A DNA stretch of 42,820 bases, from assembly GCA_964560795.1 (NCBI GenBank), contig CAZLNX010000012.1, forward strand, positions 1 to 42,820, read 5' to 3'. The number at the start of each line of letters is the position of its first letter. The stretch's first letter is position 1. The stretch is from an uncultured Anaerolineales bacterium (GTDB lineage: Bacteria > Chloroflexota > Anaerolineae > Anaerolineales > UBA11858). This document shows positions 35,783-39,517 of this stretch, in pieces. The notes under the pieces were generated by a model. It was not told the origin of the DNA, did no database searches, and saw nothing but the letters and a program-made list of their open reading frames with translations. The position numbers and the translations under genes are program-made.

Positions 35783-35814
35783 AGCTATCAGCTGTCAGCT
35801 GTCGGCTGATAGCT
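35783..35814. other. Perfect 10-bp inverted repeat AGCTATCAGC/GCTGATAGCT with a 12-nt CAGCTG-containing loop. It overlaps the Vps4-like gene stop codon, 16 nt before the next gene's ATG.
   Basis: Read directly from the sequence. No U-tract follows on the coding (minus) sense. Confidence 0.4.
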
Positions 35815-36931
35815 ATCTGCTTCCTTTTGCAAAGTTCTCGAACTTGCGCAAATCTTTCTCAGGGATTGATGGTCCCATTTCGCCCAACACAGTCTGGAAA
35901 TCATCTATCGCCATGGGGCGCGATTGCCCGCTGTGAATGGCATCCGAGAAGACCAGCTCCCGAACACGGCGGGCAACGGCAGCCATGTCGGCACCGCTGA
36001 AGCCCTGAGTCTGGTCGGCGATATCGCCCAGGGAGACACCCTCAGCCAGGGGCGCTTCCTTTAAATTAAGCTCTAATATACGGCAGCGGGCAGGCCAATC
36101 CGGCGGCGGCACATAGATAAGGCGGTCTAAACGTCCTGGTCTTAAGATAGCAGAGTCAATCTCCCAGGGTTCGTTGGTAGCCCCAATCAACAACAAGGGG
36201 TTCTCGCGTTGGTGGAAGCCGTCCAATTCGGCCAAAATCTGCGGCACAACCCGCTTCATCACCGTGGAGTGTGTTACGCGGCGCTTGGGGGTCAAGGATT
36301 CCATCTCGTCGATGAAAATCACGCTCAAAGGGAGTCCGGCAGCCATGCTGAATAACTGGGCGATATTCTGCTCGGCTTTGCCCACCCACTGGCTCATGAC
36401 CTCCGAGGGTTTAATCGCAAAAAATGCCGCCTCGATCTCCCCAGCCACAGCGCGGGCCATCAGGGTTTTGCCCGTGCCAGGAGGTCCGTATAGCAAAATG
36501 CCCCCTCCGGGCTGCACGCCATACTGCTCGGCCAGCTCGGGATGGGTGAAGGGGTAGAGCAGCTTGATGCGAATTTGCTCTTTGACCTCGTCCAGGCCAG
36601 CCACATCGTCGAAGCTTACATTCGGGCGTTCTCCCACCAACCAACCGGAAGACTTCTCATCATCCCCCACCGCAATTGGCCGCGTGGGTGATTTCGAGGA
36701 GGCTGTCTTATTCTTCAGCGCCTCGGCCTCAGCCATCAACTGTTTAGCCAGCGTCAGGCGCGAATCTCGCAAGCGACCGCGCGATCCTTTGGCAGCGCTC
36801 ATCATTTTCTCTGAGGCCGTTAATAATGCTCTCCGGGCCGCGTTGGTATCCCCGCTTTCCCGGGCTGAGACACCGGCGTTAAAATAACGCTTTGCTTCAG
36901 CGAGCAAACCATCAACCGTGTTTTCAGCCAT
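35813..36931 (-). CDS. MIT-domain AAA+ ATPase, Vps4/katanin-like (meiotic clade), copy 2
   Basis: N-terminal three-helix MIT-like region. [19 protein letters not shown] (Walker A), [30 protein letters not shown] (Walker B), [25 protein letters not shown]. Confidence 0.8.
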   Translation of the reverse strand: [372 protein letters not shown]

Positions 36932-36966
36932 ATCTCTTCCTGCGCTGCTTCTCGTTACCGAATGCG

Positions 36967-37608
36967 TCAGCGCTGCTCGTCCTCCAATTCTTGGCGGATT
37001 TTGCGCAGCCCGGCCTCGATCTCGCGATCGAAATCTGAAGCCTCTTCGCGGATGACTTCATCAGTCAGGCTGGTCTCTAAATCTTCGAGGCGATCTTCCT
37101 CGACGACCATATCCGATGCCAGAGTCGAGTCCATCAAATCCATCATGATGGCCATGCGCTCATCCAGGTTCGAGGCATGCGCCAGGCCAGTCTCCAGTTC
37201 ACGCTGCAGTTCAGCCACGTTCTGAGGTCCGGCCATAGCGGCCAATGACTCGCTGGTCGCTTTGATTGCCTTGATCAGCTCTACCGAGGCTTTAGCCTGG
37301 TCCCGGCGGGCTTGCAGCAGTTCCAAGGAGAGCAGGTAACCTTCCCAACGCTGGATATCCGTTTGAGTCCACAATAACTGCCGCCCCACCTGACGAAAGC
37401 GGGCTTCATCATTAATGGCCAAAGCCCGTTTAGCCAGGCCCTTCAGGCGTAAGGCCATCTTTTTCTGATTCTGAATATGGCGCTGCAGCTTGGCTCTGCC
37501 CATACGCACCTGCACGTCGCGATCAAGCTCGGCTTCCTGGCGCCTCTCTTCCGCGCTGCGAAATACCCGGCGGATCATACGAGCGACTTTTTCAGGGTCA
37601 GGCAGCAT
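36967..37608 (-). CDS. Snf7/ESCRT-III-like coiled-coil protein with basic N-terminus and acidic C-terminus
   Basis: 213 aa. N-terminal half rich in R/K, C-terminal ...MDLMDSTLASDMVVEEDRLEDLETSLTDEV...EIEAGLRKIRQELEDEQR (MIM-like amphipathic end). Placed 11 nt upstream of a MIT-AAA gene. Confidence 0.5.
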   Translation of the reverse strand: MLPDPEKVARMIRRVFRSAEERRQEAELDRDVQVRMGRAKLQRHIQNQKKMALRLKGLAKRALAINDEARFRQVGRQLLWTQTDIQRWEGYLLSLELLQARRDQAKASVELIKAIKATSESLAAMAGPQNVAELQRELETGLAHASNLDERMAIMMDLMDSTLASDMVVEEDRLEDLETSLTDEVIREEASDFDREIEAGLRKIRQELEDEQR

Positions 37609-37619
37609 AGGGTTCTCCT

Positions 37620-38810
37620 TTATTCATCCACCTGTTTGGACCAGGCTTCATAGCGACGCAGCATGGCTGAGTCGCTGCCAGGTTTGATCTCAGTAAAGGC
37701 AATCTCGAAATCCTGGGGAGATAGCGCTTCGACGCGGATTTCATAATCCCGCACCGCGTCCTGGCCCTTATCGACGATGGCCAATAGCCCGGGGTTGGCG
37801 CGCTGGGTCATGTGGGTAACCGCCGTCTGGCAGACCTGCTCGATCTCGCGCCCCGAATAACCCTGGGTGCGTTCAGCCAACTCATCAATGGTCAACTGGC
37901 TCTTGTGCCCCCGGCGAGTGATGAATATCTCCAGGATGGTCCGACGCGCCTGGGCATCGGGCAGTGGCACATAGATGCGCTTCTGAAAACGACTCAAGAT
38001 AGCGGTGTCGATCAGCCAGGGCACATTGGTAGCTCCGATGGTGATGATCAAATCATCCCTGCCTTTGCTACCCAGGCCATCGATCTCCGCCAGCAAGGTG
38101 CTGACAATGCGCCGTTCGGCGCCGCTGTCCCCAGAGCCGCGCGGCGTCGAGAGCGACTCGAATTCATCCAGGAAGATCACCGAAGGACTCAGCCGGGCCG
38201 CGGCGGCATACAATGCCGAGATCAGCTTGGTGCTCTCCCCAAAGTACTTGGAGAGCATATCGCTGACCTTGACGCTGAAGAAAGTGGCATCCAGGCTGCC
38301 GGCGGTGGCCGCGGCCAGCAGGGTTTTACCTGTCCCCGGAGGGCCGAAGAGCAGGAAGTTGCGCCAGCTTTCAATAACCACACCCTCTGGCTTGCGGGCC
38401 AGGGCCAGGCCATAAGCCGACTTGATGGCGGCCTTGGTTTCGCCCAGGCCGCCGATATCGTCCCAACTTATCTCCGTACGCTGGATCAGGCTCAATACTT
38501 GGGTTTCGTAATCATCTTCACCCGTGGCCTCAGCGGGCTGCACTTCTGTTTTTGAATCTCCCAGCGGAGCGCCGGCCGGGGCTTTTCCCAGCCGCTCAGC
38601 CAGCTCATCCAGTGCTTCGGCCCGTTCCAGGCGCGTCTTACGGATTTTGGCATCGCGCGAGCTGCCCGCGTACTGGCGCATAAACTCAGCCGCATGACGA
38701 TATGCCGCCGAGGCGTCCCTGGCCGAGCCACGTTTTTCTGCCTCTTCGGCGCGCTTGCGGGCGCGCTTATATTGTGCGTAGATCGAGGCGCTCAGATCAA
38801 CAGGGGCCAT
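37620..38810 (-). CDS. MIT-domain AAA+ ATPase, Vps4-like, copy 1
   Basis: [96 protein letters not shown]. Block-by-block similarity to eukaryotic Vps4. N-terminal helical MIT-like region. Confidence 0.85.
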   Translation of the reverse strand: [396 protein letters not shown]

Positions 38811-39517
38811 TAGAAATCCTCTTCGTAGGATTCAGGCTCCTCGGATTTCTCTTTTTCCGCCATCTGGCGGGTGAACTCAGTGTACTTCTCATCCAGTGCT
38901 TCAGGGCTGTCAGCCGCTTCGCGGGCGGATTGCATGGCCTGCATGATCTCGTTGACGTCTTGATCCTCGCGGTACTCCGGGCTGAGGGAATCAGCTTCTT
39001 CGAGGATACCCAACAAGTCGTCGAATTTGTTCATGGCAAACTCGCCATCTACGCTGGCCCTGTCAATGTAGACGATCAAATCACCCAGGTCGATATCCGA
39101 GAGCAGCTTCGAGATACCAGTCTCGGCCATAACGCGGGCGCGTTCCTTGACCTGGACCAGGCCGTTGAGAATACGCATCTGCTTGGAGATAGCCTGCAGC
39201 ATGCTGTCCATATTACTGGCGCGCACATCCAATTCCTTGATTCGCCGGGCGATGACGCGTTGTTCGCGCTCGCTGGCGTTGCGAACGCCCTCCTCGAAGA
39301 GCTGGCGCTTCTTGCCTTCCACATCACGCAGGCGGGCCAGCATTTTGCGCTCTTCTTGATCCAGGCGCACCTTCTCCCTGCGCAGATCGTCCAGCTTGAG
39401 ATCTTCCAGGGTAGCGCCTTCGACGGTAGCCGGGGCTTCTTTATCATCAGCACCGCCAAACAGCAAATCCTTGACAATCGCCAGAGCATAATCTTTCAAA
39501 GTCCGTTTTTCTGCCAT
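38810..39517 (-). CDS. Snf7/ESCRT-III-like coiled-coil protein
   Basis: 235 aa of coiled coil. The C-terminal 40 aa are strongly acidic (EEPESYEEDF). Its stop overlaps the ATG of the Vps4-like gene (TAATG), suggesting translational coupling. Confidence 0.5.
   Translation of the reverse strand: MAEKRTLKDYALAIVKDLLFGGADDKEAPATVEGATLEDLKLDDLRREKVRLDQEERKMLARLRDVEGKKRQLFEEGVRNASEREQRVIARRIKELDVRASNMDSMLQAISKQMRILNGLVQVKERARVMAETGISKLLSDIDLGDLIVYIDRASVDGEFAMNKFDDLLGILEEADSLSPEYREDQDVNEIMQAMQSAREAADSPEALDEKYTEFTRQMAEKEKSEEPESYEEDF

Follow-up and report, generated by a model that had tools for sequence, protein, structure and literature searches.

Recent reviews confine the ESCRT-III/Vps4 membrane-cutting machinery to archaea and eukaryotes, and according to a review from 2025 a Vps4-like ATPase appears to be absent in bacteria (PMC7619361). 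The archaeal ESCRT loci catalogued by Makarova et al. (2024; PMC10936438) encode a winged-helix (wH) protein upstream of ESCRT-III, accompanied by Ser/Thr kinases, SPFH proteins with zinc ribbons and PQQ-type propellers, and in the 'Meth_adaptin' loci of the same study SPFH, coiled-coil and zinc-ribbon elements are combined. The main text of Ravi et al. (2024; PMC11237479) reports the transfer of VPS4-like ATPases to bacteria, where snf7 was displaced by a TPR/six-transmembrane (6TM) protein, and the association of some bacterial PspA/Snf7-clade proteins with AAA+ ATPases, for which ATP-dependent membrane remodelling was suggested. Here, a cassette of genes for coiled-coil proteins and AAA ATPases is described from an uncultured Anaerolineales bacterium (Chloroflexota), in a stretch of 42,820 nucleotides (assembly GCA_964560795.1, contig CAZLNX010000012.1, positions 1 to 42,820) that is called the window in what follows, and is interpreted as a probable bacterial system of the ESCRT-III/Vps4 type.

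Four open reading frames, all on the minus strand, form the part of the cassette on which the interpretation turns. In the order of transcription they encode cc1 (39517..38810; 235 amino acids, a helical hairpin/coiled coil), AAA1 (38810..37620; 396 amino acids, a MIT-AAA ATPase resembling Vps4 and CdvC), cc2 (37608..36967; 213 amino acids, a Snf7/CHMP-type ESCRT-III protein by its profile matches) and AAA2 (36931..35813; 372 amino acids, with a MIT-like N-domain and a core like that of Cdc48 D2 and PAN). The stop codon of cc1 overlaps the start codon of AAA1 in the sequence TAATG, the 11-nucleotide spacer between AAA1 and cc2 contains AGGAG, 35 nucleotides separate cc2 from AAA2, and a strong Shine-Dalgarno site, GGAGGA, lies 5' of cc1. 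These junctions and sites speak for an operon with translational coupling. The co-directional frames and their junctions agree with an earlier prediction made from the letters of the window alone (hereafter the original prediction), which had taken them for a tandem of two Snf7-like/MIT-AAA pairs. Together with the gene for an HTH_17 protein upstream, they would constitute a five-gene operon (HTH_17 protein-cc1-AAA1-cc2-AAA2), and we put the probability that this operon encodes a bacterial ESCRT-III/Vps4-type membrane-remodelling module at about 0.7, its function being read from homology and synteny.

When searched alone, cc2 matched Pfam Snf7 (PF03357) below threshold (E=0.004, 17.2 bits, for a gathering score of 27.3), and Snf7 was the sole recurrent Pfam family in its close relatives (25 of 36). 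An exhaustive hidden Markov model (HMM) search of 1.84 billion cluster representatives retrieved 202 relatives of cc2 (clusters at 50% identity), 121 of them full-length, and 48 of these 121 matched Pfam Snf7 (best E=1.3e-8). When the profile of the 121 sequences (alignment A5) was compared with the PDB, the matches were CHMP3 (1.7e-7), Vps24 (1.9e-7), CHMP2A (3e-6), Heimdall ESCRT-IIIB (1.9e-5), Snf7 (3.8e-5), CHMP1B (1.8e-4) and CdvB (1.3e-3), and PspA/Vipp1 was not among them. The Asgard ESCRT-IIIA/B and Vps4 references were taken from Supplementary Data 1 of Hatano et al. (2022; PMC9192718). With hhalign, the extended cc2 family aligned with Asgard ESCRT-III over 184 columns (98.2% probability, E=3.8e-14) and the narrow Anaerolineae cc2 family did so with E=2.5e-8; the comparison of the extended family with Asgard ESCRT-IIIA/B gave no assignment to subtype A or B. 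Searches of the PDB with phmmer, using cc1 or cc2 as single sequences, returned nothing meaningful, and the narrow cc2 profile returned designer PPR proteins only, which were rejected as low-complexity/repeat artefacts. The Snf7 relationship that had been proposed for both coiled-coil proteins was recovered for the cc2 family and is weak for cc1, and PspA_IM30 (PF04012) matched none of the scanned members of the cc1 and cc2 families, the 121 full-length cc2 relatives included.

The predicted structure of cc2 agrees with the ESCRT-III fold, in which alpha4, alpha5 and a C-terminal helix come after a long alpha1-alpha2/3 hairpin; in its AlphaFold2 model the predicted local distance difference test score (pLDDT) was 75.6 overall and 86-95 across the alpha1-alpha2 hairpin. 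The basic N-terminus and acidic C-terminus ascribed to both coiled-coil proteins were confirmed by the isoelectric points of their N- and C-terminal halves (11.2 and 4.2 for cc2, 9.0 and 4.1 for cc1). At the N-terminus, the 'MGLF' of the extended cc2 family aligned with the 'MGLF' of CHMP3, and the cc2 of the window has a conserved, strongly amphipathic extension of 12 residues (hydrophobic moment muH 0.93).

A MIM1-like C-terminal helix had also been proposed for cc2, and it proved to be real and conserved, with the best register from D194 to R205. The amphipathic helix spans residues 194-208 (DREIEAGLRKIRQEL; 36985..37029, minus strand) and in this register reads D194-x-x-I197-x-x-G-L201-x-x-I204-R205-xx-L208, which matches the spacing of the MIM1 consensus [DE]xxLxxRLxxL[KR] at five of six positions. 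The corresponding columns of alignment A1 were conserved at 86% (D194), 97% (I197), 89% (L201), 94% (I204), 97% (R205) and 92% (L208), and the pattern was still present in the extended family A5. The helix aligned with that of Asgard ESCRT-III in hhalign and with that of Vps24 in hmmsearch. From these matches taken together, cc2 is classed as a Snf7/CHMP-type ESCRT-III protein.

The first ATPase, AAA1, consists of a single classical AAA cassette in which Walker A (GPPGTGKT), Walker B (IFLDE), sensor 1 (GATN) and the aromatic pore loop 1 (KYFG) are intact; the alignment of orthologs showed KYFG in all of them. Its best NCBIfam model was CdvC (190 bits, residues 19-393, full length), and CdvC was the top model in four of five AAA1-type proteins, with a small margin over CDC48 of 2-28 bits. 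In blastp, AAA1 aligned with Lokiarchaeal Vps4 at 36% identity from residues 14-396 to residues 9-405, the MIT domain included (216 bits), and more weakly with VAT D2 (169 bits) and Cdc48 D2 (151 bits). The arginine-finger segment of AAA1 is two residues shorter than that of AAA2, and its LSRF is identical to the one in MLSRFEKR of Lokiarchaeal Vps4; the shortened segment, RRF in place of RPGR, is taken here as a marker of the meiotic clade. A serine replaces the first of the adjacent arginine fingers (residues ~268-272 in the AAA1 of the window) in most AAA1 orthologs and in Lokiarchaeal Vps4.

A neighbour-joining (NJ) tree was computed from 214 core columns with Kimura distances and 500 bootstraps, using seven references (three Asgard Vps4 and the D1 and D2 domains of VAT and Cdc48, the latter from the PDB matches of the two ATPases). 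AAA1 was sister to the Asgard Vps4 proteins with 65% bootstrap support, and AAA1 and AAA2 were grouped with each other in 0%. The ranking of PDB structures for the full-length ATPases, which was headed by the two-domain proteins Cdc48/p97, is uninformative about their clade because those scores sum over both domains.

The N-terminal region of AAA1 (residues ~10-80; 38571..38783, minus strand) is predicted to form a MIT-like three-helix domain according to its profile and Asgard Vps4 matches. In the PDB its profile matched the MIT domain of VPS4B (E=0.0047), CdvC, katanin, MITD1, VPS4A, calpain-7 and the chitin synthase MIT, and ~15 of the 27 matches were MIT domains. Against the N-termini of the Asgard Vps4 proteins the same profile scored 26.7, 25.7 and 18.7 bits, and Pfam MIT was the commonest family in the N-termini of AAA1 orthologs (four of nine, best E=2.5e-4). 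The domain is accordingly described here as MIT-like.

The second ATPase departs from this pattern. AAA2 is also a single-cassette classical AAA protein with intact Walker A and B, sensor 1 and aromatic pore loop, and it reads QWVG at the pore loop, IFIDE at Walker B and RPGRLD, of the Cdc48/PAN type, at the finger segment, where both arginines of RPGR are kept. Its best blastp match was Cdc48 D2 (45.6% identity, 216 bits), with Heimdall Vps4 at 188 bits over the full length. The motif-by-motif correspondence to Vps4 that the original prediction had described for both ATPases therefore applies to AAA1, with the reservation that its finger reads SRF and not RRF, but fails for AAA2, which has a segment of the Cdc48/PAN type. 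Placement in the Vps4 clade is favoured, tentatively, for AAA1, which is closer to Vps4 than to Cdc48 (65% NJ bootstrap; 216 versus 169 and 151 bits), and is doubtful for AAA2, the core of which is like Cdc48 D2. Given SRF in AAA1 and both arginines in the RPGR of AAA2, mixed AAA1/AAA2 hexamers are a possibility.

The N-domain of AAA2 (residues ~9-72; 36716..36907, minus strand) is nonetheless MIT-like by its homology to that of AAA1, and the N-terminal families of the two ATPases aligned in hhalign with 95% probability (E=2.3e-8). It matched the N-termini of Loki and Heimdall Vps4 weakly (14.1 and 12.9 bits), and its profile had no direct match in the PDB. These results and the PDB matches of AAA1 agree with the MIT-like regions foreseen in both proteins. 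In the NJ tree, AAA2 was never placed with the D2 domains (0 of 500) and stood with AAA1 and Vps4 opposite Cdc48/VAT at 94%, a split that is weakly informative because there were so few outgroups. A Cdc48/VAT ortholog (TIGR01243) was considered and rejected for either ATPase: both have a single cassette and a helical N-domain, without tandem AAA domains and a double-psi-barrel, and the CDC48 model aligned to both through its D2 part only (approximately positions 444-730).

The other coiled-coil protein, cc1, is more divergent. In hhalign, the narrow families of cc1 and cc2 were not similar, the cc1-family alignment A2 and the extended cc2 family A5 matched marginally (E=0.0074), and a diversified cc1 alignment matched the extended, Snf7-like cc2 family with E=2.7e-5 and 74% probability across 141 collinear columns, from alpha1 to alpha5. 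The cc1 HMM gave nothing significant against the collected Snf7-like set, and a homolog search with the diversified alignment did not extend the family. The cc1 orthologs of two loci (L010 and L011) begin with the LFG-plus-basic motif typical of CHMP N-termini. Because of these starts and the value of 2.7e-5, cc1 was taken as a divergent member of the ESCRT-III superfamily; we lean towards this assignment, at a high degree of divergence, while regarding it as not proven.

The arrangement recurs widely. Thirty-nine loci were retrieved, all from metagenome assemblies or metagenome-assembled genomes (MAGs), and their open reading frames were typed against the proteins of the window. The order HTH_17 protein-cc1-AAA1-cc2 was found in every locus with enough flank, which amounts to ~25 non-redundant loci, and since the order is kept in all of them, it is not due to chance. 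Carriers include seven GTDB representative MAGs, from Anaerolineae, Anaerolineales, Anaerolineaceae and Ardenticatenaceae (all Chloroflexota), and the ~25 syntenic loci are mostly of the Anaerolineae type, the distant L012, L014 and L015 having no taxonomic assignment. In most loci AAA2 follows cc2, and it is absent from L006/L034 and L009; the conserved core therefore comprises the HTH_17 protein, cc1, AAA1 and cc2, and AAA2 is an accessory component that is dispensable in some lineages. Two coiled-coil/ATPase pairs are present, as had been claimed, but a simple duplication is not what they show, given that cc1 and cc2 have no profile similarity in the narrow families and the AAA1 and AAA2 cores are ~39% identical. 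The term 'duplicated cassette' is imprecise, because the tie of cc1 to ESCRT-III is weak and some lineages do without AAA2, whose core is like that of Cdc48 D2.

The theme is retained in distant loci with 21-25% identity to cc2. In L014, a 203-amino-acid protein, AAA392, a Snf7-like protein of 227 amino acids and AAA363 are encoded, preceded by genes for FHA and kinase proteins; in L012, two pairs are oriented divergently, and in either pair a small helical protein comes before an AAA ATPase. In L015, a Snf7-like protein is followed by a 1096-amino-acid multi-AAA protein and a further AAA ATPase of 364 amino acids (L015:7708-10998), an arrangement that may match the association of Snf7 with multi-domain AAA+ proteins in the main text of Ravi et al. 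(2024). A rearranged version occurs in Planctomycetales (L010), with genes for Snf7-like, kinase-FGE, short HTH_17 (81 amino acids, upstream of the cc1-like gene), cc1-family and AAA proteins; the cc1-family protein matched the cc1 HMM with E=8.8e-9, and the AAA protein gave a weak match to Vps4_C. No relative of the cassette was found in the IMG/VR viral contigs. In L001, on a contig of 708 kb (ERZ1757541 contig_861), genes for a ParM/ALP-like actin and for a tyrosine integrase (L001:62-2475) lie ~4-6 kb upstream of the cassette, perhaps at the boundary of a mobile element.

The regulator-like HTH gene that the original prediction had treated as adjoining the cassette does adjoin it, but it is its fixed first gene and not a mere neighbour: it lies directly upstream of cc1 in every locus with enough flank. 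Its product in the window (39693..40916, minus strand; 407 amino acids) has an excisionase/MerR-type winged helix at the N-terminus (Pfam HTH_17, E=3.5e-13), an invariant cluster of seven cysteines and one histidine (C75, C78, C92, C97, C102, C105, C113 and H116), a conserved middle domain with DGFD and ATTGW motifs (ortholog alignment A7) and a C-terminus that is probably a winged helix; residues 60-407 matched no Pfam family. Just upstream of this gene, the best sigma-70-like match (TTGACT-16-TACAAT, 10/12; 40956..40983, minus strand) is a possible promoter of the operon, suggestive only because the region has no more promoter-like sites than are expected from shuffled sequence. The cassette lies within a long run of minus-strand genes. 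Its G+C content (window 35001..40000) is 0.54-0.59, against mostly 0.44-0.53 elsewhere in the window, a difference that may stem from amino-acid composition or from a separate history. The spacer of 46 nucleotides that separates AAA2 from the kinase gene downstream (35767..35812, minus strand) contains repeated CAGCTG(A) motifs (atcagccgacagctgacagctgatagctg) and may be a regulatory or structured element. Neither tRNA genes nor Rfam families were found within the window.

Directly downstream of the cassette, a Ser/Thr kinase-FGE-sulfatase fusion is encoded (33991..35766, minus strand; Pkinase E=2.4e-51, FGE-sulfatase E=4.3e-52), and in most loci a kinase gene, usually of the kinase-FGE type, lies 3' of the cassette; the fusion is a likely linked sensor or regulator. 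The window encodes at least nine Ser/Thr kinases, eight of them fused to FGE-sulfatase (formylglycine-generating-enzyme-like) domains, in a dense array on the minus strand (1370..2911, 4309..5736, 10390..13065, 13231..15162, 15404..17473, 23328..25001, 28191..30011, 31261..32838, 33991..35766 and 41241..42785, most of them FGE-sulfatase-fused). The kinase at 10390..13065 is fused to a PnrA/Bmp substrate-binding domain, and a zinc-ribbon-FGE protein without a kinase is encoded at 32849..33982.

Two further kinds of neighbour recur beside the cassette. The first is a protein of 902 amino acids (25529..28237, minus strand) with a PQQ-type beta-propeller followed by an alpha-solenoid (PQQ_2, E=1.4e-25; TPR_IF140-IFT172, 26.1 bits), whose orthologs (~900-1080 amino acids) stand beside the cassette in L001, L006-L009, L022, L029 and L034; the ortholog of the Ardenticatenaceae locus L009 (L009:6668-9910) scored above gathering for Clathrin/VPS (CHCR; PF00637), TPR_IF140-IFT172 and SNAP. 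The second is a pair of SPFH/Band_7 proteins (18100..20211 and 20249..21862, minus strand; Pfam Band_7 and DZR), the larger of which, with 703 amino acids, carries zinc ribbons at both ends, a double one N-terminally and another C-terminally; SPFH genes occur near the cassette in L001, L006, L007, L009 and L034. Membrane-coat-like proteins that combine a beta-propeller with an alpha-solenoid are known from the PVC superphylum and from the eukaryotic protocoatomer. The neighbour at 25529..28237 and the L009 copy share with them the order of propeller then solenoid and the matches to Clathrin/VPS, IFT-type TPR and SNAP, but belong to Chloroflexota and are linked to an ESCRT-like cassette, and the Pfam matches are modest. 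The same gene run encodes an M48 peptidase, a vWA-domain protein and a TPR protein (30008..31024, 5761..7086 and 8447..9109, respectively, minus strand), and large open reading frames at 2930..4243, 7100..8425 and 21881..23263 had no Pfam match.

The cassette and its surroundings were compared with the archaeal systems, namely CdvB/CdvC of TACK archaea, ESCRT-IIIA/B with Vps4 of Asgard archaea and the euryarchaeal 'Main', 'Meth_adaptin' and 'Halo_adaptin' loci (PMC10936438). As in archaea, a Snf7-type gene adjoins that of a MIT-AAA ATPase, at least two ESCRT-III-like paralogs occur, a gene for a winged-helix protein lies upstream, and Ser/Thr kinases, zinc-ribbon SPFH proteins and PQQ-type propellers belong to the locus; the alignment of AAA1 with Asgard Vps4 is also full-length, and the LSRF segment is common to both. 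In contrast to archaea, the host is bacterial (Chloroflexota, and also Planctomycetales), all components score far below the thresholds of the archaeal families (17 versus 27.3 bits for Snf7 and 190 versus 650 bits for CdvC), the second ATPase has a Cdc48-D2-type core, the kinases carry FGE-sulfatase domains, and the upstream protein combines HTH_17 with a zinc cluster and is not ESCRT-II or CdvA-like. No homologs of ESCRT-I, ESCRT-II, ubiquitin or adaptin appendages were detected. With eukaryotic ESCRT-III and Vps4 it shares the fold, the basic/acidic asymmetry, the MGLF-type N-terminus (in the extended family), the MIM1-like C-terminal helix and a MIT-AAA partner with an aromatic pore loop, but it has no Vta1/LIP5, ESCRT-0, ESCRT-I or ESCRT-II, and AAA1 differs from eukaryotic Vps4 in having no Vps4-specific beta-domain signal and, in most orthologs, one adjacent arginine finger.

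Among bacterial systems, PspA/Vipp1 (IM30) has in common with the cassette the superfamily fold, the bacterial host and, in some PspA loci, the association with SPFH/Band_7 (PMC10936438, PMC7619361), whereas cc2 falls on the Snf7/CHMP side and PspA systems have no MIT-AAA partner, PspF being an AAA+ transcription factor of the bacterial enhancer-binding protein (bEBP) type. In the Snf7/PspA cases presented in the main text of Ravi et al. (PMC11237479), the partner is a two-AAA-domain ATPase and the operons contain components of ABC transporters; that main text describes neither the present cassette nor its kinase/SPFH/propeller-solenoid neighbourhood, so that, as far as it goes, those cases are a partial precedent with a different cassette. 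No published description of this cassette was found in the literature searched, itself incomplete. In view of these comparisons, the cassette is classed, by its predicted proteins, as a bacterial system of the ESCRT-III/Vps4 type whose composition is distinctive.

If this classification is right, cc2, probably with cc1 as a second and divergent subunit, would polymerise on the cytoplasmic (inner) face of the cytoplasmic membrane, which the basic alpha1-alpha2 hairpin and the N-terminal amphipathic motif would contact. The acidic tails of the coiled-coil proteins, ending in conserved amphipathic helices that in cc2 are MIM1-like, would recruit the MIT domains of the ATPases. AAA1 and, where present, AAA2 would form hexamers and thread subunits through their pore loops (KYFG and QWVG), and extraction of subunits would turn the polymer over and lead to membrane constriction, scission, repair or resealing. 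The HTH_17/zinc/winged-helix protein may regulate transcription, or it may be a winged-helix adaptor comparable to the wH proteins whose genes precede that of ESCRT-III in archaea. As for the conserved neighbourhood, the flanking kinases may supply a signal input, and the SPFH and propeller-solenoid proteins could serve as a scaffold for membrane domains or cargo. The physiological output could be membrane repair, vesicle formation, remodelling of septa or cell-cell contacts in filamentous Anaerolineae, or a response to stress or phage.

Several observations weigh against this interpretation. Both ATPases reached 190-201 bits with CdvC, far below the equivalog cut-off of 650, and AAA2 scored 235 bits with NCBIfam CDC48 against 201 bits with CdvC over the full length, the CDC48 and PAN models both outscoring CdvC; its orthologs scored alike, with CDC48 above CdvC. 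Of the two neighbouring arginine fingers, most AAA1 orthologs retain a single one (SRF; RRF is found in L006 and L011), each Pfam MIT match of the AAA1 orthologs was below the gathering score, and the reference set of the NJ tree did not include katanin, spastin, PAN and FtsH. The Vps4_C domain (PF09336) was detected in the AAA1 ortholog of L009 (24.8 bits, over the gathering score of 21.3) and scored 17.8 bits in AAA2, but the profile of the AAA1 small domain and C-terminus fitted VAT D2, katanin and p97 D2 better than Vps4, and because of this preference there is no Vps4-specific beta-domain signal; an insert of ~17 residues in AAA1 relative to AAA2 aligned equally well with the insert of p97 D2. 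The protein cc1 did not significantly match Pfam Snf7 or the ESCRT-III sequences of the PDB and of Asgard archaea, and its sole link to ESCRT-III is the E=2.7e-5 to the cc2 family, a kind of profile-profile score that coiled-coil composition can inflate. The membrane evidence computed here for cc1 and cc2 is amphipathicity only, and every functional claim for the cassette is drawn from sequence. Nevertheless, nothing that the original prediction had listed as speaking against a membrane-remodelling system of the archaeal/eukaryotic type was encountered, AAA1 being nearer to Vps4 and the N-domains being MIT-like, and that reading is supported by the predicted proteins.

The cassette might instead be the effector or repair arm of an anti-phage or stress-sensing conflict island, in which kinase-FGE sensors would detect an invader or envelope damage and then switch on the module for repair or abortive infection. 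This view is compatible with an ESCRT-like mechanism, and the accumulation of at least nine Ser/Thr kinases in the window, eight of them FGE-sulfatase-fused, the DUF1016/YhcG nuclease-like genes interspersed with the components in L010 and the integrase and ParM-like genes upstream of the cassette in L001 would fit it. A kinase domain matched the PADLOC defence kinase PD-T4-6 with 283 bits, the HTH matched mad1 and the AAA cores resembled IetA (127 bits), but these are generic matches at the domain level that score below CdvC and CDC48; PADLOC models matched none of cc1, cc2, the propeller-solenoid and the SPFH proteins, and no match was obtained at the level of a system. The known PADLOC systems IetAS, MADS and PD-T4-6 were rejected for that reason, their matches being to AAA cores, HTH and kinase domains in general. 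The gene order is stable over deep divergence, unlike that of fast-shuffling defence islands, and nothing was found in viral contigs of IMG/VR, so that we consider the conflict island unlikely, though the most serious of the rival explanations.

The remaining alternatives carry much less weight. Soluble Cdc48-like unfoldases working in quality control or complex disassembly, with the coiled-coil proteins as adaptors or substrates, would reduce the ESCRT-III likeness to the possession of long helical hairpins; the link between cc2 and Snf7/CHMP is specific at the level of sequence profiles and extends to the C-terminal helix and the N-terminus of MGLF type, the alignment of AAA1 with Vps4 takes in the MIT domain, and the SPFH and coat-like neighbours point to membranes, which makes this explanation very improbable. 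That a PspA/Vipp1-type envelope-stress system stands beside AAA ATPases by chance is harder still to credit, and it was rejected, since cc2 falls on the Snf7/CHMP side by every sequence test and PspA_IM30 is not matched. An archaeal contig with an ordinary archaeal ESCRT locus could have been mis-binned, all sources being metagenome assemblies or MAGs, but the seven GTDB representative MAGs are independent and all belong to Chloroflexota, with NCBI names in agreement, a rearranged version exists in Planctomycetales assemblies and one copy is on a 708-kb contig. The genes, moreover, have Shine-Dalgarno sites, the kinase-FGE-sulfatase and HTH_17 neighbours are typically bacterial, and the proteins fall well short of the thresholds for archaeal CdvC and Snf7; mis-binning is the least credible explanation of all.

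If a conserved bacterial operon does combine a Snf7/CHMP-type protein with a MIT-AAA ATPase of the Vps4 kind, the history inferred for the partnership of ESCRT-III and Vps4 would change. In a more speculative proposal, which we consider possible but doubtful, Chloroflexota and Planctomycetota harbour a bacterial ESCRT system that is old, has been maintained vertically and is a sister of the archaeal machinery, not a recent transfer; the inventory that would go with it, and that we put forward just as tentatively, comprises Snf7-type paralogs, a MIT-AAA ATPase sister to Vps4, a winged-helix component, kinases, SPFH proteins and a protocoatomer-like protein. If this were true, the partnership, perhaps with a vesicle- or coat-like sorting module, would not be an archaeal invention, and bacteria would possess an ATP-driven machine for membrane scission with reverse topology, with a possible role in division, septation or vesicle release in filamentous Anaerolineae or in Planctomycetes, which are not known to have FtsZ. 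We know of no disassembly motor for PspA and Vipp1, the bacterial members of the superfamily. With a core of four to five genes and 202 family clusters, the cassette would offer a compact and tractable system for the remodelling of ESCRT-III polymers by an AAA motor, and it would suggest that ATP-driven scission or repair of membranes awaits exploration in Chloroflexota and Planctomycetota. The neighbourhood of zinc-ribbon SPFH proteins, coat-like propeller-solenoids and sensor kinases strengthens the parallel with archaeal protein-sorting loci, and the origin of endomembrane-type machinery would therefore become testable in bacteria.

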